Positions 3,001 to 7,652 of a stretch of 7,652 bases of DNA are shown here, one piece after another. The stretch comes from Nanopusillaceae archaeon (GTDB lineage Archaea > Nanobdellota > Nanobdellia > Nanobdellales > Nanobdellaceae). The position numbers and the translations under genes were made by a program. The stretch covers positions 27,397-35,048 of the forward strand of contig JBMFJD010000009.1 of NCBI GenBank assembly GCA_049974095.1, in the 5' to 3' direction. Numbering within the stretch: the first letter of the stretch is position 1; each line of letters starts with the position of its first letter. The notes below the pieces were generated by a model. That model was not told where the DNA came from. It did not search any database and saw only the letters and a list, made by a program, of their open reading frames with translations.

Positions 3001-3761
3001 TAGCTAGCATAACATATAATATTACTGTTGGTAATACTACTAATACATATGATCAAACATTATCTGGAACATCTGCAATAATACAAATACCTTTACCAAC
3101 TGGATCATTTACTATTAGTGGATATATATATGATATATCTGGTTTGTCTATGCCATTTATATATGGAGTATCTGGCGTGTCTGTAATATCTACAAATAGT
3201 AGTATTACAAATTCAGCTAGTGGTACTTCTTCATATGTACCACTATTGTTACCAAGTATTAATGTATCTGAAACACCCAAAGGATTAATGGTAACTGCAA
3301 TGGCAGTATCTAAATATTATCCAGTAAACTGTACAATAGAACCACTTAATACAACCGTCAGATTAGATAACTCATTACCATATGCATCAATAATACCAAA
3401 TGCTCCTACTGGTACATATCCTATATATGCTGTATGTACAGATCCAGCAGGTGATATTGCAACATCTAATACTGTACCTGTAAATATATCGCCTGATTAC
3501 TTACAATTTATTGGAACAGCATATGCAATTGCAAATCAAAATACATTATATTCATTACCAATTCTAGGTATAATATTTGCAATACTCGGATATTTATTTA
3601 GATCAAAGACCTTGTTCTTCTCTGGAACAGAATTAGCATTGACAACACCAATAATATATGCAATACTGTCAACAATGAGTCCATTATTTATTGGTCTATC
3701 TATTGTACCGGCAATTATTGGGGCTTATATATTATATAAATATATATTGCCATTATGGTAG
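6..3761 (+). CDS. Giant secreted, C-terminally membrane-anchored, heavily N-glycosylatable multidomain surface/envelope protein; no named homologue recognised
   Basis: The ORF is 1251 codons, far too long to be chance in AT-rich DNA. The N-terminus MKKARFFVVLLLSLFLVKSIFS/QN looks like a Sec signal peptide: basic n-region, hydrophobic core, small residues before a likely cut. I hand-counted about four dozen N-x-S/T sequons. Charged residues are very scarce: aa 481-910 hold about 1 Lys, 0 Arg and 7 Asp/Glu by my count. Cys residues fall in pairs within modules, for example CDYSGLC. The C-terminus has 2-3 hydrophobic helices. Only 5 nt lie upstream, so the promoter is outside the window. Confidence 0.85.
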   Translation: MKKARFFVVLLLSLFLVKSIFSQNYPYTNYSVITIQNNVNSNLYNYPILITLNNTQTLMTNGYLNPTCTNLIFQQNGQELPYFVQTCGYISVSSSIGFGNTNMPLSNNPTIPVSLSTVNGSWWGNNVWTGSSQDSYASISLNLNGYAYPIWLEVNTSGPEYAVWVNGQYVYNSNPWNFSYNSQQPANTTDQIFDITNYIVQNSTNNILIFATSNSTSNYLSYQIIIPSANVTISSNGVYYLPGTIWVNIPSIPANNYTNVYLLLTYPNTSTIVNNMSNVFTYGTHKISNTYNDVDIIKDTVFSDVPGSEYGYEQWVLTPFLYQVNDYCSNSNYYLVPYEITSISIPVNKGKYTLSGVNIGYYLSSYLPSTSVGPEQFIAVQQNYTTKVNSWSSININLPTPIFWLYGYYLNLIFNRPPIGGAGEIFGISGMNATGLYGVTSNGYYPLYNIPVKSSNIIPLSYITGYFRPYISPEPMVSMSVLLNITNATNISAPISINIQFPQQNSTVAILPNNQILQPIVIINSTLPINSCNMTLYNSVSVIYNGICTNSINVTGIQSGFYTLSVSASNQYNSTNASVSFYMTIANGEYNFTYITYPSTVPSIPFYINISTTCTNNICAPGQVSLITPVACYTPTPTINIPEMLPGQIFNTSFIVQCAYTTYPYVFNVSFYLAGSLFSTQSISLNGPTLSLSYNVTNGNLYVYAYPSGWGQNITLLGTVQQGWVMNSTTTQSQFYVNISDDTQSLIYSSPAIPGQTYAVYAQVYSPQFFDTYPIQSIFATIQATQPPTIYSVTAPSTNYNGLLTNICYNVSDQIVVTNVYGYYVNSLGQTIYLFNNTYFNQTVYACTPVNLTLGNYSIYVKACDYSGLCSIFPPVPVSIVPYPPYTIIIYPSNVSIFHSSPQVISIYYSHPLERYTSCIITSSSGIINMKATLYNNTNNTIAFSFSPGEYNLFITCSSNYTAETIPFTIIYNYLPPMINSVNISNGYLILNVSSDVGLASITYNITVGNTTNTYDQTLSGTSAIIQIPLPTGSFTISGYIYDISGLSMPFIYGVSGVSVISTNSSITNSASGTSSYVPLLLPSINVSETPKGLMVTAMAVSKYYPVNCTIEPLNTTVRLDNSLPYASIIPNAPTGTYPIYAVCTDPAGDIATSNTVPVNISPDYLQFIGTAYAIANQNTLYSLPILGIIFAILGYLFRSKTLFFSGTELALTTPIIYAILSTMSPLFIGLSIVPAIIGAYILYKYILPLW
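75..809 (+). other. N-terminal DUF2341-like segment interrupted by a jelly-roll (galactose-binding-domain-like) module
   Basis: aa 24-88 (YTNYSVITIQNN..LYNYPILITLNN...NLIFQQNGQELPYFVQ) and aa 243-268 (GTIWVNIPSIPANNYTNVYLLLTYPN) resemble the two halves of the DUF2341 pattern (itI.N...l.nfpvli.l ... dirF.d.dG..LpY.ie ... vWVkvPsipa....iylyYgn). Between them, aa ~140-213 (YPIWLEVNTSGPEYAVWVNGQYVYNS...QIFDITNYIVQNSTNNILIFATS) resembles the GH2-N/CBM-type jelly-roll pattern (a.VwvNG..v ... fDiT..l..g.N.l.v). These are pattern matches by eye, not profile searches. Confidence 0.35.
1473..3500 (+). other. Array of about seven tandem Ig/PKD-like beta-sandwich modules (aa ~490-1165)
   Basis: A strand motif G-x-[YF]-x-hydrophobic-x-hydrophobic, often followed by D-x-x-G, recurs at about 95-100-aa spacing. 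Examples are GFYTLSVSASN (aa 560), GQIFNTSFIVQCAY (647), GQTYAVYAQVYS (755), GNYSIYVKACDYSGL (855), GEYNLFITCSSN (949), GSFTISGYIYDISGL (1033) and GTYPIYAVCTDPAGD (1136). Confidence 0.5.
3546..3755 (+). other. C-terminal membrane-anchor bundle of the 1251-aa protein (2-3 TM helices, aa ~1181-1250)
   Basis: The hydrophobic segments are LPILGIIFAILGYLF, then a basic loop RSK, then LALTTPIIYAILSTMSPLFI and GLSIVPAIIGAYILYKYIL. Confidence 0.6.
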
Positions 3762-4003
3762 ATAAGAAATTAAAGGAAGAGGCTGCAAAATTTGTTGAAA
3801 AAAGAATTAGATTAGGTTTTGAAACAGAGAAATTACAAAAAAATTATATGAGGAATGTTGCTAAATTCTTAGGATTACCAGTTTCTAAAGTAGAAAAATC
3901 TATGGCAGTACAACACTATTATGAGGTTATAAGAAAAAGTAAGCCTGAAATGGCTAAAAAGATGGTTGCTAAATTATTAGAAAGATGGAAAGAAACAGAG
4001 TAA
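3755..4003 (+). CDS. Small K/E-rich helical cytoplasmic protein, possible helix-turn-helix DNA-binding protein
   Basis: The ORF is 82 aa. Its ATG lies inside the sequence ATGGTAG that also carries the upstream stop (a 7-nt overlap), and its 3' end overlaps the next start by 19 nt. The composition (K, E, A, R rich) is typical of a cytoplasmic protein and contrasts sharply with its neighbours. The segment MRNVAKFLGLPVSKVEKSMAVQHYY fits a helix-turn-helix pattern (hydrophobic-A-x-x-L-G-hydrophobic-x-x-x-x-V). Confidence 0.65.
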   Translation: MVDKKLKEEAAKFVEKRIRLGFETEKLQKNYMRNVAKFLGLPVSKVEKSMAVQHYYEVIRKSKPEMAKKMVAKLLERWKETE

Positions 4004-4716
4004 TAGGTTTATCTATAGATTTATTTAAGTATATTGTTGTAGTTACAATATTAGCATATGCATGGTATCTTGTAGCTGCAATAGTACAACATGGATATCC
4101 TGTACAGGTAATTGTACAATTACAAGAAACACAACAAATCTATCTATATTATATTATACTTGCTACAATTGCAATGCTATATTATGTAGCATCCGCATTA
4201 TTAGATAAATCATATGCTCCAACATATTCAAAATTATTTAGTAAGACTCAATTATTCTGGGCAATAGTATTTATTCTTGTATATTCTATAGCATATTTAT
4301 TTGGGTTATTCAGTAATGGATTTCCACAATTAGCTACTATTGCAACAGCATTACCATTTGCAATCGTACTAGGTGTACAGGGTTTAGTAGAGAATATGTT
4401 TTTCATAGGTACATTAGGATTTGGTATGAAATATGAGCTAACAGAGAGAGATATATCAGGATCTATATTATTAGCAGCAATATTTGTTGCATTTGTTGCA
4501 ATGATGTGGCATTTATATATCTATATCTCAGTAACGATGGTTGGAGGAACATTATATAATGTAATACAAGTAGCAGCATCTGTATTTACTTTCTTCTTCT
4601 TTGGAGCATTGCTATCATTTTCGAATGATAATACATGGACCTGGGATATAGTACACTTTACAGTTAATTTCTTGGTAGCTCTGGCAGGGGCACATGGTTA
4701 TGTTATTATATTCTAA
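3985..4716 (+). CDS. Polytopic (about 7 TM) membrane protein, candidate divergent CPBP-family (CAAX protease / Abi) intramembrane glutamic protease
   Basis: The protein is 243 aa with about seven hydrophobic helices and no Cys. Polar residues inside the last four helices follow the CPBP motif order. V-E136-N-M-F-F-I-G (nt 4390 gag) corresponds to motif 1, EExxxR. M-M-W-H176 (nt 4510 cat) sits at the end of the next helix and corresponds to motif 2, FxxxH. H224-F-T-V-N228 (nt 4654-4668) in the last helix corresponds to motif 3, HxxxN/D. Motif 1 lacks the second Glu and the Arg, and motif 2 lacks the Phe at -4. The CDS call is strong. The family call is a by-eye motif match. Confidence 0.8.
   Translation: MERNRVIGLSIDLFKYIVVVTILAYAWYLVAAIVQHGYPVQVIVQLQETQQIYLYYIILATIAMLYYVASALLDKSYAPTYSKLFSKTQLFWAIVFILVYSIAYLFGLFSNGFPQLATIATALPFAIVLGVQGLVENMFFIGTLGFGMKYELTERDISGSILLAAIFVAFVAMMWHLYIYISVTMVGGTLYNVIQVAASVFTFFFFGALLSFSNDNTWTWDIVHFTVNFLVALAGAHGYVIIF
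4703..4712 (+). promoter_or_regulatory. Possible internal TATA-like box for a leaderless transcript of the 472-aa gene
   Basis: The sequence ttattatatt is centred about 25 nt upstream of the ATG at 4732. The intergenic gap is only 15 nt and has no Shine-Dalgarno-like GGTG/GAGG. TATA-like strings are common in DNA this AT-rich, so support is weak. Confidence 0.25.
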
Positions 4717-4731
4717 ATACAATAATATATA

Positions 4732-6150
4732 ATGAGAGTTAAAATTGAGTATATTCTTGTATCATTGTTGTTATTAGGATTCATTCTTCCTATTATTGTA
4801 GTTAATATATCATCCCTTCATTCATTTAATATACAATGTTCCTTTTTAGCAAATAGTGTAAATGTTGGTAGCGAAATACAATACCAATGTTATGGTACTT
4901 ATCCTTTATCTTCAGGAGATAATATATTTACTATATCTTTACCAGGTATTGGAAATATACAAACATCTTATCTCTCTTTTGTAAATGTTACAGAGCCTAT
5001 ATATAATATTAATATATCTGGATATGTGTCTCCAAATAGTCAAATAACTCAACAAGTCTCTATACCATCTACAGCTACAAATATACTAATATATGGTTCT
5101 TTACAAGGTATACAATCTAATGGTCAATACCCATCTGGTGCATCGATAACTGGTGGTAATTATCCTTTATACTGTAGTCCAACATGTATCTATAATTCTA
5201 GACTAATAATTAATAGTACTGGTAACTATGTCCTAACTATATCTTCTGGTACTGGTGGTGGAGGAGTTAATTATGATATATATGGATCTTATAATTTACC
5301 ATATCCAACTGCAAACATACTTTTAAATGGTATGTTAATACAGTCATTAACATTATCTTCATCTCAAATCATTTCTCTACCTGTTAATTCTTTATCTACC
5401 GTAGATGTACAAGTTAATGGTCAACCAAATGCAAATGTTTTGTTTAATATTATACAAAATTGTTTCTTAGGTGGTGGAAATTGGAGTTGTAGTGAATATA
5501 CAAATCCCCAAAATAGTTCAGAATCTATATTGGATTGTACTACACAAGTAACATCTAATTGTAATTTAAACAATATTAATATTCAGGTACCTATTAGTAT
5601 ACCACAAGTTAAATATTTTTCACAGGCAGTTCAAACCAACGTTTATGTAAATGGAGTGCAGGTTAGTGCTGATACTTCAGGATTAACATCTGTAGCTCCT
5701 TACTTTGTAATATATTCTTTAAATCAAGGAACAAACAATATCGAGATTAAGTCAATATTACCGTTCATATTATCTGGTGCACAGACAGCTATTGGTTCAT
5801 GTCAATTATCTGCAACAAGTATAGATATACAAACACTTTCTGGTCAACCTGTTAATTATACATTATATATTAAAAATGTAGGAAACAGTCCTATACAAAT
5901 ACAAATAGCTGTGCCTGTATCTTTAAGTAGATCAATTTCTGTTAGTCCACAAAGTACTTTAATAGATCCGGGACAAACCATTGGCATTAATATATATATA
6001 AAAGGGCCAATATCTGGTGAGATATATATAAATGGATGTTCATATGAGAGTATTACAATGCCTATATCTGTATCGTATACCAATCCATATATTATATTGA
6101 TTGTACTTGCGGCTGGACTAATTGTTTTATTCCTTGCATTTCACAGATGA
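4732..6150 (+). CDS. Secreted glycoprotein with a C-terminal CARDB/NEW3-like beta-sandwich and a single C-terminal TM anchor
   Basis: The protein is 472 aa. It has an N-terminal hydrophobic segment (MRVKIEYILVSLLLLGFILPIIVV), many N-x-S/T sequons, and ten Cys arranged as local pairs (IQC..YQC, YCSPTC, NCF..WSC, DCT..NCN). aa 356-449 read SCQLSATSIDIQTLSGQPVNYTLYIKNVGNSPIQIQIAVPVS...LIDPGQTIGINIYIKGP...ITMPISVSY, which fits the CARDB/NEW3 pattern (G..v.ltv.V.N.G........v..p......l.pGes..v.v.v). The anchor PYIILIVLAAGLIVLFLAF is followed by the tail HR. Confidence 0.85.
   Translation: MRVKIEYILVSLLLLGFILPIIVVNISSLHSFNIQCSFLANSVNVGSEIQYQCYGTYPLSSGDNIFTISLPGIGNIQTSYLSFVNVTEPIYNINISGYVSPNSQITQQVSIPSTATNILIYGSLQGIQSNGQYPSGASITGGNYPLYCSPTCIYNSRLIINSTGNYVLTISSGTGGGGVNYDIYGSYNLPYPTANILLNGMLIQSLTLSSSQIISLPVNSLSTVDVQVNGQPNANVLFNIIQNCFLGGGNWSCSEYTNPQNSSESILDCTTQVTSNCNLNNINIQVPISIPQVKYFSQAVQTNVYVNGVQVSADTSGLTSVAPYFVIYSLNQGTNNIEIKSILPFILSGAQTAIGSCQLSATSIDIQTLSGQPVNYTLYIKNVGNSPIQIQIAVPVSLSRSISVSPQSTLIDPGQTIGINIYIKGPISGEIYINGCSYESITMPISVSYTNPYIILIVLAAGLIVLFLAFHR
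5797..6078 (+). other. CARDB/NEW3-like Ig-fold domain of the 472-aa protein (aa ~356-449)
   Basis: See the motif alignment described for the parent CDS. This is a by-eye pattern match. Confidence 0.45.
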
Positions 6151-6566
6151 TAGTAAAGGTAGGAAATAAATATTATTATATTGGAGATAAGGTAGCGAGA
6201 ACTATATTAAAAAGAATCTCTGATAATAAAATACATACAATAGAATCTATTAAAGATATAAAGGAACAATATGGAAAAAGGGTTTATGATGTACTATGGA
6301 CTTTAAATAAAGAAGGTATTGTTGATATAAAGAAAACATTTACTGGTAAACTATTAATGAAATCTAAGGCTAAGGAAGTAAAATATATCAATATTTTATT
6401 AATTATCTCAATATTTACTTCTACAGGTATATATCTATTATCTCTATTATTGATAAAACAAGAGTTATTTAGATATATTGGTGTTCTAATTGGTTTGGCG
6501 TCTACTATAGAAATAATATTATTATTATTAAGTAAGAAGGTATTTGATGATATGGAGACTTTATAA
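6147..6566 (+). CDS. Membrane-tethered winged-helix-like protein (N-terminal wHTH-like domain plus C-terminal TM hairpin)
   Basis: The protein is 139 aa, and its start overlaps the upstream stop as ATGA. aa 12-66 (ARTILKRISDNKIHTIESIKDIKEQYGKRVYDVLWTLNKEGIVDIKKTFTGKLL) have the helix / helix-turn-helix / beta-wing layout of MarR/TrmB/PadR-type winged helices. aa 80-103 (YINILLIISIFTSTGIYLLSLLLI) and 108-128 (FRYIGVLIGLASTIEIILLLL) form two TM helices, followed by a short acidic tail KKVFDDMETL. Confidence 0.75.
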   Translation: MIVKVGNKYYYIGDKVARTILKRISDNKIHTIESIKDIKEQYGKRVYDVLWTLNKEGIVDIKKTFTGKLLMKSKAKEVKYINILLIISIFTSTGIYLLSLLLIKQELFRYIGVLIGLASTIEIILLLLSKKVFDDMETL

Positions 6567-6632: not shown

Positions 6633-7652
6633 ATGGCAATGACAAAGCAGACAGAGTATATATTAGCAGCACTATTTTTGTTATTAATAGGGGGTATAGC
6701 ATACATGTCATATACGGGAGTAAAGCCATCGGCACCAGTATCAGTAGCCTGTGGTCCAATACTATCACAGGTATACGGACTGTCAGGACAAGCAGTAAGT
6801 GAAGTAGCAAAAGTATTAAATTCAGTAAACAATAATCCAGTACAAGGTGCTAACATATATGCATTTAGCACACAACCATATTACTGGGGACAATCACAAG
6901 TATGGAGTTTAGCATCATCTATGGTATTAGGACAAACACCAACAGCAGTTACAGGAACACAAGGTAATGCTACATTACAAGTAACAATTCCATCAGGAAA
7001 TCAAACATCAACAGAATATTTAATTGTAACAGCACCAGGATACTGGACAGAATTATACACATTATCGACAGGATTTAATTCATTATTCTCAGCATCATCT
7101 GAACAACAATGTGTTCAATTATACCCATATTCAACAATACAAGACTTGTTACCATCTTTAATACAAGTACAAGCACAAGATGTATTAACAGGAAAGATAG
7201 TACAATTAAACCAAATAACATTGGAACCAGTTGGATCACTAGTACCAAATATTACAACAGTTTCATTAGGAGTAAACTCTAACCAATTCGGAGCATCATT
7301 AACAGGAGGATACGTTGGATTCGTAAGCGGTGGATCATTAAGAATTACAGGTATTAAATTAATAGGATTAAACATGTCAAATGACGGAATACAACAAGTA
7401 TCATTAACAATAACAGCAAATGGACAAACATTATACAATGGTGTAGTATATAATGCATTAAACTCTAACTTACCATTAGGATCAGGATCAGGAACATACA
7501 CAATATCTGTACCAAATGGAGTAGTTGAAATACCAAATGGAGGACAATTACAAATACAATTACAAGTAGTTGCAAACACTAATACAGAACAAACAGCAGG
7601 ATACTTATATCCAGGAGAACAATTCATGCAAATACAATTACAATTAGCAGAC
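6633..7652 (+). CDS. N-terminally anchored, beta-rich, Q/G/T/V-rich extracellular protein, 3'-truncated by the window edge; likely abundantly expressed structural or surface protein. Not in the supplied ORF track.
   Basis: I translated 340 consecutive sense codons by hand with no stop through the last base of the window: MAMTKQTEYILAALFLLLIGGIAYMSYTGVKPSAPVSVACGPILSQVYGLSGQAVSEVAKVLNSVNNNPVQGANIYAFSTQPYYWGQSQVWSLASSMVLGQTPTAVTGTQGNATLQVTIPSGNQTSTEYLIVTAPGYWTELYTLSTGFNSLFSASSEQQCVQLYPYSTIQDLLPSLIQVQAQDVLTGKIVQLNQITLEPVGSLVPNITTVSLGVNSNQFGASLTGGYVGFVSGGSLRITGIKLIGLNMSNDGIQQVSLTITANGQTLYNGVVYNALNSNLPLGSGSGTYTISVPNGVVEIPNGGQLQIQLQVVANTNTEQTAGYLYPGEQFMQIQLQLAD. The gene shows strong, uniform codon bias (caa, aca, gga, gta, tta, cca, tca, gca), has one N-terminal TM helix (aa 9-27), and has a promoter and terminator context upstream. 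Met3 (6639) is an alternative start. Confidence 0.85.
   Translation, partial: MAMTKQTEYILAALFLLLIGGIAYMSYTGVKPSAPVSVACGPILSQVYGLSGQAVSEVAKVLNSVNNNPVQGANIYAFSTQPYYWGQSQVWSLASSMVLGQTPTAVTGTQGNATLQVTIPSGNQTSTEYLIVTAPGYWTELYTLSTGFNSLFSASSEQQCVQLYPYSTIQDLLPSLIQVQAQDVLTGKIVQLNQITLEPVGSLVPNITTVSLGVNSNQFGASLTGGYVGFVSGGSLRITGIKLIGLNMSNDGIQQVSLTITANGQTLYNGVVYNALNSNLPLGSGSGTYTISVPNGVVEIPNGGQLQIQLQVVANTNTEQTAGYLYPGEQFMQIQLQLAD

Follow-up and report, generated by a model that had tools for sequence, protein, structure and literature searches.

The window, that is, the whole 7,652-nt stretch of DNA analysed here, carries a block of forward-strand genes around an ORF for a seven-helix membrane protein of 243 aa (Table 1). 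This ORF is a real gene with an ATG start, and its homologues keep the first methionine and the 'MERNR' N-terminus in the family alignment. It overlaps the small upstream gene by 19 nt, exactly as the earlier note on this DNA had stated, and a counterpart of that gene (56–84 aa) is found upstream in most close loci with an overlap of 4–19 nt. The best family matches of the 82-aa product, Rv2175c_wHTH (E-value 0.14) and phrog_2036 (E-value 8e-4), were sub-threshold. The 1251-aa gene is the upstream member of the module; its family profile matched a bacterial Ig domain only, and its orthologue in locus L015 matched DUF2341 at an E-value of 2e-16.

Table 1. Genes of the window and motifs of the 243-aa protein, with the evidence used for each assignment
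Feature	Position	Strand	Evidence
Surface glycoprotein, 1251 aa; signal peptide, DUF2341-like region, 49 N-X-S/T sequons, three C-terminal TM helices	6..3761	+	
HTH-like small helical protein, 82 aa	3755..4003	+	Sub-threshold wHTH-type matches only
CPBP/Rce1-like seven-helix membrane protein, divergent subfamily, 243 aa	3985..4716	+	ORF, family alignment, AF2 model, Foldseek, remote members above PF02517 gathering score
Variant motif 1, V-E136-N137-M-F-F140-I141-G142 (canonical EExxFRG)	4387..4410	+	Translation, hhalign register, conservation
Variant motif 2, A172-M-M-W175-H176 (canonical FxxxH)	4498..4512	+	Translation, hhalign, conservation
Motif 3, H224-F-T-V-N228 (canonical HxxxN), last helix	4654..4668	+	Translation, hhalign, conservation
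Cys-rich glycoprotein, 472 aa; N-terminal hydrophobic segment, C-proximal Ig-like domain, C-terminal TM and basic tail	4732..6150	+	
139-aa protein; N-terminal soluble domain, two C-terminal TM helices; alternative candidate substrate	6147..6566	+	
ORF running off the window, >340 aa, 5' part; N-terminal TM; family 336–361 aa	6633..7652	+	

Directly downstream, the 472-aa product has 7 N-X-S/T sequons, 10 Cys residues, a C-terminal TM and a basic tail, in agreement with the anchored glycoprotein that the earlier note had placed there. It scored 25.3 bits against the HYDIN/VesB-like Ig domain, for which the cut-off is 25.5, and its family profile matched the HYDIN-type Ig domain only. In its close homologues an invariant Gly-Cys is followed by 17–19 aa, the TM and the basic tail at the C-terminus, where the cysteine probably pairs with C357 as an Ig-domain disulfide; distant members of the family have a second C-terminal TM after the basic cluster. 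The following 139-aa gene overlaps the 472-aa gene by 4 nt, and the soluble domain of its product is winged-helix-like by eye, with no significant match in family searches. The family of the last ORF travels with the glycoprotein module. No CaaX box stands at the end of any protein of the window (C-termini ...AFHR, ...ILPLW, ...DMETL and ...WKETE), and no cleavage motif was identified in the proteins neighbouring the 243-aa protein. Sequence tests of the 472-aa and 1251-aa families for fusexin or other known folds found Ig domains only, and the 842-aa and 959-aa module proteins of locus L002 gave no match in the same tests.

The 243-aa protein had been read in the earlier note as a CPBP (CAAX/Abi) protein with a degenerate motif 1, and the motif strings given there, VENMFFIG (E136), AMMWH (H176) and HFTVN (H224/N228), translate exactly so. 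Motif 1 retains its Gly, its Phe and the catalytic-type Glu but has Asn137 in place of the second Glu and Ile141 in place of the Arg; the hhalign register pairs E136 with the first Glu, N137 with the second Glu, F140 with the Phe, I141 with the Arg and G142 with the Gly. The canonical EExxxR is absent from the protein, and E-N...I is found across the family. The motif-2 His is H176 by alignment, and the position of the motif-2 Phe is occupied by Ala172. Motif 3 (HxxxN/D) is present in register as H224 and N228, both of which are invariant. Both AlphaFold2 models have seven helices, with E136 on helix 4 (residues 116–154), H176 on helix 5 (160–184) and H224/N228 on helix 7 (218–234), consistent with the claimed order of the motif residues on the C-terminal helices. 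Ionisable residues are few, as had also been remarked (5 D, 5 E, 5 K, 3 R and 4 H in 243 aa). The bare pattern E..H..HxxxN/D was obtained by chance in 430 of 20000 composition-preserving shuffles (2.2%), and taken alone is weak evidence.

Conservation is the strong evidence that this Glu/His/His/Asn pattern exceeds chance. The family is small, with about 17 sequences and identities down to 25%. E136, N137, H176, H224 and N228 do not vary among the 11 close homologues (50–100% identity). Searching 1.84 billion representatives with a profile added the remote members P0012–P0015 at E-values from 3e-53 to 4e-7, and an alignment of 12 family members that reaches down to 25% identity leaves just 11 invariant columns, among them E136, F140, H176, H224 and N228; N137, I141 and G142 are conserved at 90% or more in the family alignment. 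All four tetrad residues, whose conservation in homologues the earlier note had proposed to check, are therefore invariant. A 62%-identical paralogue carries the name 'PsiE' in one source, a label that we rejected since Pfam PsiE gave no match at E-values up to 10.

Direct searches with the 243-aa protein and with its close homologues found no match to Pfam, NCBIfam, PHROG, PADLOC or PDB sequence profiles. PF02517 (Rce1-like) gave no match at E-values up to 10 for the protein or its 10 closest homologues, and a custom CPBP HMM of 41 members scored it at –4.4 bits. Because these direct profile searches were empty, the link to CPBP was built through the remote members. Against the PF02517 gathering score of 22.4 bits, P0014 and L012:3420-4169 scored 25.7 and 23.0 bits, respectively, both above the threshold, and P0013 scored 21.9 bits. 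The two members above the threshold are tied to the 243-aa protein by profile E-values of 3e-14 to 4e-21 in 1.84 billion proteins, and a direct BLASTP comparison of a P0014-type protein with the 243-aa protein gave an E-value of 1.5e-18. The profile search suggested in the earlier note thus came out negative for the protein itself but positive for these two relatives.

Alignment of the family profile with 41 PF02517 members by hhalign gave P-values of 0.0006–0.007 (about 0.001) with all three motifs in register, at an hhalign probability of just 5–30%. The signal was confined to the C-terminal half in the forward direction, and decoys (reversed profiles and the N-terminal half) gave P-values of 0.2–0.7. 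Of the nine near-invariant CPBP columns, six line up in register with an identical residue that the family conserves. No transporter or ABC-2 match, which the earlier note had named as evidence against its own reading, was found in Pfam, NCBIfam or PDB searches. PDB sequence matches of P0014 or the wider profile to a P-type ATPase, a peptide permease and an SDH subunit (E-values of 0.2–0.4) were dismissed as noise, and tblastn of plasmids with the CPBP consensus sequence gave no match.

The AlphaFold2 model of the 243-aa protein (pLDDT 85.3, pTM 0.85) has an Rce1-type fold with a motif-bearing core of four helices; of the seven helices in all, numbers 4, 5 and 7 hold the motifs. Its best PDB match in Foldseek was 4cad, the Methanococcus maripaludis protease MmRce1, with a probability of 0.96 and TM-scores of 0.52/0.51, the remaining matches being at 0.35 or below. 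MmRce1 was again the top match of the first AlphaFold2 model, for which SpdC (6u0o) came third. In BFVD, the top match was an Orpheovirus 'CAAX prenyl protease' (probability 1.00, TMt 0.60, rmsd 4.2 Å over 158 columns). The Foldseek E-values for the model were 0.09–0.4. Each of these separate lines of evidence is modest. Remote members above the PF02517 threshold, the hhalign register, the conserved tetrad and the fold match nevertheless all support the divergent-CPBP reading of the earlier note, and the product of the ORF is very probably a highly divergent CPBP/Rce1 homologue. The CPBP family is thereby extended beyond the detection of the current Pfam model, and a small subfamily is founded.

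In every locus examined, a member of the Cys-rich anchored glycoprotein family (470–700 aa) is encoded directly 3' of the CPBP-like gene. The pair is kept across family members of 25–100% identity, and the stop and start codons of the two genes often overlap. This conserved synteny backs the idea, also from the earlier note, that a dedicated substrate may be encoded nearby, and makes the 472-aa glycoprotein a tentative candidate for the substrate.

The CPBP-like gene sits on contigs of 28–35 kb that carry mostly genes of unknown function and are binned with Nanopusillaceae. On a 28.7-kb contig read end to end, about 45 genes were found, of which an MCM helicase, a MarR-type HTH protein and Hjc alone were recognisable, and the gene content of a 27.9-kb contig gave a similar picture. 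The contigs resemble viral or plasmid DNA of a Nanopusillaceae-associated element. The element had no match in INPHARED, IMG/VR or the GTDB species representatives, and the literature on Nanoarchaeota viruses yielded no usable genome description. Neither terminal repeats on the contigs read end to end (L006–L010, L012, L015, L016 and L020) nor tRNA genes at possible integration sites were found. In the distant branch represented by L013, the fusexin Fsx1 appears to be physically linked to the protease-glycoprotein pair.

In MmRce1, E140, H173, H227 and N231 face the cavity, unlike E141, and R145 makes up the base of the cone; two motif-1 positions, the second Glu and the Arg, are conserved but have no assigned catalytic role (PMC5874806). 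Because the residues replaced in motif 1 are those with no catalytic assignment in MmRce1, we favour an active glutamic intramembrane protease, and by this analogy the 243-aa protein is predicted to be probably active. The loss of the E61/R65-type residues could also mean lost or altered activity, since in 41 canonical CPBPs R65 is invariant and E61 is conserved at 90% or more. We lean towards accepting the composite claim, namely that the protein is a divergent CPBP homologue with protease activity towards a co-encoded membrane protein.

We infer a course of catalysis, a substrate and a membrane side of cleavage as follows. By analogy with MmRce1, E136 on helix 4 and H176 on helix 5 would keep the catalytic water in place and activate it, and H224 and N228 on helix 7 would form the oxyanion hole. 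The protein cut by the protease would probably be a membrane-anchored one encoded on the same element, with the Cys-rich glycoprotein encoded directly 3' as the likeliest candidate, and the cleavage would take place as the surface or envelope glycoprotein module of this 28–35-kb MCM-encoding mobile element, either virus or plasmid, matures. The positive-inside rule predicts an N-in/C-out orientation of the protein, by which the loop after motif 1 would be cytoplasmic, so the cavity would open outwards.

Four other explanations were weighed against this reading. The likeness of the E/H/H/N residues could be coincidental in a transporter, channel or other seven-helix membrane protein of unrelated origin, given that the 243-aa protein had no direct profile match, that the simple motif pattern arose in a small share of the shuffles, that helical bundles readily match each other and the Foldseek E-values reached no lower than 0.09, and that one source names a paralogue 'PsiE'. 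We consider this highly improbable: the scores of two remote members exceed the curated PF02517 threshold, hhalign gives a signal specifically for the C-terminal half in the forward direction, two-thirds of the near-invariant CPBP columns are matched identically in register, CPBP proteins rank top in two independent structure libraries at TM-scores of 0.5–0.6 whereas other 7-TM folds stay at or below 0.35, and transporter or PsiE matches are absent at E-values up to 10. A CPBP-fold protein may alternatively be catalytically inert and bind the neighbouring glycoprotein, or another membrane enzyme, in the role of scaffold, chaperone or regulator, like SpdC with SagB or APH-1 in γ-secretase, in which case the motif-1 loss would mark lost proteolysis. 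The family-wide fixation of the degenerate motif 1 (E-N...I) and of the missing motif-2 Phe, the invariance of R65 in canonical CPBPs, the third rank of SpdC (6u0o) for the first model and the tight translational coupling with the neighbours, which suits a stoichiometric complex, all agree with such a role. Known pseudo-CPBPs such as SpdC and APH-1 have, however, lost the catalytic Glu, whereas here E136, H176, H224 and N228 make up 4 of the 11 columns invariant down to 25% identity, which is hard to explain if they have no chemical role. Both residues lost from motif 1 also lack a catalytic assignment in MmRce1 (PMC5874806). An inert protein is, in our view, unlikely.

The remaining two explanations concern what the protein would act on. 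An Abi- or bacteriocin-immunity-type CPBP of the mobile element would protect the carrier cell by superinfection exclusion or toxin immunity instead of maturing a glycoprotein. Bacteriocin immunity proteins and prophage-borne 'Abi' proteins are numerous in the CPBP family, giant viruses likewise encode CPBP proteins, and the gene lies on a virus- or plasmid-like element. PADLOC, on the other hand, gave no match for the gene or its neighbours, and the adjoining genes encode large glycoproteins with no small bacteriocin-like precursor or ABC exporter among them. The gene is moreover embedded in and translationally coupled to the structural glycoprotein block with the same downstream partner at 25–100% identity, which is unusual for accessory immunity genes, and we regard an immunity role as improbable. 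An active CPBP protease could also release the DNA-binding domain of the membrane-tethered, winged-helix-like 139-aa protein by regulated intramembrane proteolysis, as in PrsW- or site-2-type systems. A protein of 139–144 aa with a soluble domain and two TMs is encoded two genes downstream in the window, L002, L006, L010 and L017, and the small HTH-like gene overlaps the protease gene on the upstream side. That family is absent, however, from the distant loci L012, L015, L019 and L013, where Grx-like or other proteins are found instead and the protease-glycoprotein pair persists, and the winged-helix assignment has no significant profile support; we think this substrate very unlikely.

To our knowledge, proteins of the CPBP/Rce1 type are abundant, yet a substrate is known for few of the prokaryotic ones. 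The gene pair described here presents a clean combination of an enzyme and a candidate substrate, given the fixed gene order and the translational coupling, and it stands in the glycoprotein block of a nearly uncharacterised mobile element linked to Nanopusillaceae, tiny symbiotic archaea for which cell-surface contact with a host is vital. The subfamily is also a natural experiment on the CPBP signature, in which the tetrad is strictly kept and the second Glu and the Arg of EExxxR are discarded, and it supports the structural view that these two residues lie outside the chemistry. On a bolder reading, which we consider quite unlikely, the CPBP-like enzyme would be the dedicated maturation (priming) protease of an adhesion or fusion glycoprotein module on an undescribed MCM-encoding virus or conjugative-like family of episymbiotic Nanoarchaeota. 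Were it true, an archaeal membrane-fusion or attachment machine would be primed by a glutamic protease of the intramembrane type whose motif 1 has been pared down. The fusexin co-occurrence at one distant locus would, if it holds, point to proteolytic control of archaeal membrane fusion.

Among known systems, the best structural match is MmRce1 (Methanococcus maripaludis, PDB 4CAD), which, like eukaryotic Rce1, is a type II CAAX prenyl protease of the CPBP family (PF02517). The tetrad E136/H176/H224/N228 lies on equivalent helices at nearly the same positions as E140/H173/H227/N231 of that enzyme (PMC5874806). The two proteins differ in that the present one has seven helices instead of eight, reads E-N-x-x-F-I-G in motif 1 where MmRce1 has E-E-x-x-x-R, lacks the motif-2 Phe and is undetected by PF02517; the proteins encoded next to it do not end in a CaaX box, and its cavity, under the predicted N-in topology, would face the opposite way from that of Rce1. 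The Orpheovirus 'CAAX prenyl protease', the best viral structural match, is likewise encoded on a mobile genome, but it comes from a eukaryotic giant virus, shares 14% identity and stands in an unrelated functional context.

The myxosortases MrtX, MrtJ and MrtA are CPBP sorting proteases for the Cys-containing C-terminal signals MYXO-CTERM, JDVT-CTERM and CGP-CTERM, which are tripartite (motif, TM and basic cluster) (PMC11980579; bioRxiv 10.1101/2023.06.07.544157). MrtX, confirmed experimentally as a sorting protease, is a CPBP of 239 aa and 7 TM helices whose motifs sit on TM4 and TM7, and the gene for MrtJ lies next to that of its single target (PMC11980579). These enzymes are dedicated to membrane-anchored surface proteins. 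The 243-aa protein is close to MrtX in size and architecture, and in close loci the downstream protein ends with a motif, a TM and a basic tail, with the invariant Gly-Cys 17–19 residues before the TM. It departs from them in its non-canonical motif 1, in a neighbour whose Cys probably belongs to an Ig disulfide and in distant neighbours with a second TM; the NCBIfam myxosortase models (MrtX, MrtC, MrtP, MrtJ, MrtS and MrtA) matched neither the protein nor six remote relatives. With the non-proteolytic partners SpdC (Staphylococcus aureus, PDB 6U0O) and APH-1 it shares the CPBP fold and degenerate motifs, but its Glu/His/His/Asn tetrad, unlike theirs, is strictly conserved, which argues for retained chemistry.

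Translation of the CPBP-like gene, in a window of 29% G+C that is densely coding on the forward strand, reproduced exactly the three motif strings read in the earlier note. Two AlphaFold2 models of the product (pLDDT 77 for the first, and pLDDT 85.3 and pTM 0.85 for the second, built from a slightly deeper alignment) agreed on the seven helices proposed there and placed E136 on helix 4, H176 on helix 5 and H224/N228 on helix 7. Since the pattern E..H..HxxxN/D arises in 2.2% of shuffles of the protein sequence, its occurrence in a single sequence is weak evidence.

Features of the window discussed in the text
Feature	Position	Strand	Description
Giant surface glycoprotein, 1251 aa	6-3761	+	49 N-X-S/T sequons; DUF2341-type region near residues 243-281; three C-terminal TM helices
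Small helical HTH-like protein, 82 aa	3755-4003	+	Upstream of CPBP-like gene
CPBP-like gene	3985-4716	+	ORF, 243 aa; very hydrophobic; D/E/K/R/H total 22 residues
Variant motif 1, VENMFFIG (E136)	4387-4410	+	Translation
Variant motif 2, AMMWH (H176)	4498-4512	+	Translation
Motif 3, HFTVN (H224, N228)	4654-4668	+	Translation
Cys-rich glycoprotein, 472 aa	4732-6150	+	Starts 15 nt past CPBP-like gene
Small membrane protein, 139 aa	6147-6566	+	Soluble winged-helix-like N-terminal domain; two C-terminal TM helices; 4-nt overlap with 472-aa gene
5' part of ORF, >340 aa	6633-7652	+	Runs past window end; starts MAMTKQTEYILAALFLLL...
ORF, 170 aa	7115-7627	-	Antisense to 6633-7652 ORF; most likely spurious

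Only 11 relatives, with 50-100% identity, were found among 5.8 billion protein clusters; one of them, identical to the window protein, comes from a Nanopusillaceae archaeon MAG and is annotated as hypothetical, and E136, N137, H176, H224 and N228 were unchanged in all of them. When 1.84 billion cluster representatives were searched with a profile, just five clusters matched, contributing the remote members P0012-P0015 (E 3e-53 to 4e-7), and additional members were drawn from metagenome contigs. Aligning 12 sequences with identities as low as 25% left just 11 invariant columns (M1, D12, P79, E136, F140, H176, F203, F204, D215, H224 and N228); these include the four proposed active-site residues, whose conservation among homologues was a prediction of the earlier reading, and F140, the Phe in extended motif 1. 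The replacements in motif 1 are likewise fixed, Asn (once Thr) standing at the position of the second Glu and Ile (once Val) at that of the Arg.

Neither the window protein nor its close homologues matched any entry of Pfam, NCBIfam, PHROGs, PADLOC or the PDB sequences, even at E = 10, and the window protein scored -4.4 bits against a CPBP HMM that we built from 41 members of PF02517, the Pfam Rce1-like family. The expected CPBP profile match was therefore not obtained directly, but it was obtained via remote members: P0014 (25.7 bits) and the protein of metagenome locus L012 (23.0 bits) exceeded the PF02517 gathering score of 22.4 bits, with P0013 at 21.9 bits, and a P0014-type protein aligned to the window protein in plain BLASTP with E 1.5e-18. 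In hhalign, the family aligned with the 41 canonical CPBPs at P = 0.0006-0.007 across ~90 columns, while decoys (reversed profiles and the N-terminal half of the family) gave P = 0.2-0.7; the register paired E136 with the first Glu of motif 1, N137 with the second Glu, F140 with Phe, I141 with Arg and G142 with Gly, H176 with the His of motif 2, and H224/N228 with HxxxN. The top Foldseek PDB match of both AlphaFold2 models was the Rce1 of Methanococcus maripaludis (MmRce1, 4CAD), matched by the better model over its full length with a probability of 0.96 and a TM-score of 0.52/0.51, and the remaining PDB matches of this model had TM-scores of at most 0.35. In an independent library of viral structures, the top match was an Orpheovirus 'CAAX prenyl protease' (prob 1.00, TMt 0.60), and a second CAAX protease ranked fifth. 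No transporter family, which had been named as the competing assignment, was matched at any threshold.

None of the four lines of evidence is overwhelming singly, but they are jointly consistent and specific and make homology to the CPBP/Rce1 fold very probable. The intermediates, hhalign and fold matches thus uphold the earlier view of a divergent CPBP relative with a degenerate motif 1, its activity and substrate being putative. We classify the family as a new motif-1-variant subfamily of the known CPBP kind, neither a canonical member nor categorically new, because the direct Pfam test failed and the window protein lacks both the full EExxxR (motif 1) and the full FxxxH (motif 2), while HxxxN (motif 3), the fold and homology via intermediates are present. 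It most probably derives from the CPBP/Rce1 glutamic intramembrane proteases, which would also be closest in working. Assigning this homology solidly rescues a 'hypothetical protein', and its variant motif 1 is informative on which CPBP residues are dispensable. One public source names P0059, a 62%-identical paralogue (ACP5GJ_03790), 'phosphate starvation-inducible membrane PsiE'; no family member had a Pfam PsiE match, and the name is probably an annotation error.

In MmRce1, E140, H173, H227 and N231 point into an intramembrane cavity, where the catalytic water is bridged between E140 and H173 and the oxyanion hole consists of H227 and N231 (PMC5874806, an Rce1 review). The tetrad lies at nearly equal positions in the two proteins (136/176/224/228 in the window protein), all four residues with an assigned chemical role are kept, and the two replaced residues are exactly those without one. 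Because the residues with a chemical role are the ones retained and the tetrad is strictly invariant in the family, we moderately favour a working protease; the same two observations speak against an inert scaffold of the SpdC or APH-1 kind, which appears unlikely. As for the orientation of such a protease, Lys and Arg gather at the N-terminus, loop 2-3 and loop 4-5 (family means of 2.3, 2.65 and 2.9, compared with 0.65, 0.47 and 0.18 in loops 1-2, 3-4 and 5-6), which indicates a predicted N-in/C-out topology, and the loop following motif 1 would therefore be cytoplasmic. Basic residues tend to occur there in canonical prokaryotic CPBPs too (mean 1.8 K+R in the 22 residues past motif 1). In MmRce1 the cone is closed at its base on this side (PMC5874806), and by homology the cavity may tentatively be placed as opening to the cell exterior, opposite to Rce1, an orientation that would be apt for cleaving exported proteins anchored in the membrane.

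The CPBP-like gene belongs to a module with the conserved order of giant surface glycoprotein (about 1220-1290 aa, with DUF2341 and three C-terminal TM helices), small HTH-like protein, CPBP-like protein, Cys-rich glycoprotein (470-520 aa) and small membrane protein. Both neighbours described in the earlier note were recovered, namely the 82-aa gene with its 19-nt overlap and the anchored glycoprotein downstream. GC skew stays negative (-0.08 to -0.31) in the 1251-aa coding region and is positive over 3500-4750. The 472-aa glycoprotein carries a hydrophobic segment at its N-terminus and contains 10 Cys and 7 sequons for N-glycosylation; near its C-terminus lie an Ig-like domain and, last, a TM helix with a basic tail that ends in His-Arg. 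Its family shares an invariant Gly-rich motif, SGxGGxGxxYxIxGSYxxxxP (residues 173-192 of the 472-aa protein), and an invariant Gly-Cys 17-19 residues ahead of the C-terminal TM and basic tail (residues 435-472). The likeness of the latter to a Cys-containing tripartite sorting signal is superficial: the Cys is probably bonded to C357 in a disulfide spanning the Ig-like domain, and a second TM is present in distant homologues. No convincing sorting signal was found.

The sole constant in every locus is a pair in which the Cys-rich glycoprotein gene comes next after the CPBP-like gene. Their stop and start codons often overlap, and the pair persists where divergence is greatest (L012, L013 and, from Great Boiling Spring, L019/L020); this is the pattern expected of a putative enzyme-substrate or enzyme-partner pair. 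An alternative candidate substrate, for regulated intramembrane proteolysis, is the membrane-tethered 139-aa protein, which could be a regulator but lacks conservation in distant loci. This last component of the module varies: L012 and L015 have a membrane-anchored glutaredoxin-like CxxC protein instead, fitting disulfide formation in Cys-rich exported glycoproteins. The ORF at the window end belongs to a family of 336-361 aa that travels with the module and lies directly upstream of the CPBP-like gene in L012 and L019.

More than 40 neighbouring genes in related loci had no significant Pfam or PHROG match. Contig Ga0453806_37478 (28.7 kb; L017/L021/L023), which bears the 62%-identical paralogue and shares the MAG's locus-tag prefix ACP5GJ, encodes about 45 genes from end to end, nearly all without known function; only a short MCM helicase (385 aa), a MarR-type HTH protein and a weak Hjc resolvase match were recognisable. 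Contig Ga0395593_050736 from another sample (27.9 kb, L022) has the same layout with one additional PALP enzyme, and the helicases of the two contigs are 385-391 aa long. One Nanopusillaceae MAG holds three diverged copies (ACP5GJ_02600, _03585 and _03790) on contigs of 35.0, 59.9 and 28.7 kb. The module was absent from 185,579 GTDB species representatives, IMG/VR and INPHARED, and no terminal repeats were seen on the contigs read end to end, nor any tRNA genes at possible integration sites. The unrecognisable neighbours, the MCM/MarR/Hjc set, the diverged copies and the absence from these databases are the signature of a putative, previously uncharacterised archaeal virus or plasmid family, not a core chromosomal locus, whose Nanopusillaceae host is assigned by compositional binning only. 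The CPBP-like and glycoprotein genes would represent an enzyme and its partner in an unknown mobile element linked to Nanoarchaeota.

In L013, the 614-aa product of 12860-14704 (+) is clearly homologous to Fusexin1, an archaeal fusogen (PDB 7P4L, E 1.6e-11; precomputed PF28161; HAP2-GCS1, E 3e-4). It is encoded two genes downstream of P0015 (10001-10762), the most divergent family member, and the intervening gene encodes a 702-aa protein homologous to the 472-aa family. No CPBP or CAAX protease near fsx1 or in fsx1 elements is mentioned in the fusexin paper (PMC9259645), and no fusexin-like sequence was found in window-type loci; the linkage, seen at this one locus only, is a lead.

Among known systems, the constant gene pair echoes the MrtJ/JDVT-CTERM pair. 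In size and architecture, the window protein is closest to the seven-helix prokaryotic sorting proteases such as MrtX, an experimentally confirmed myxosortase that is a 7-TM CPBP of 239 aa, compared with 243 aa and seven predicted helices here.
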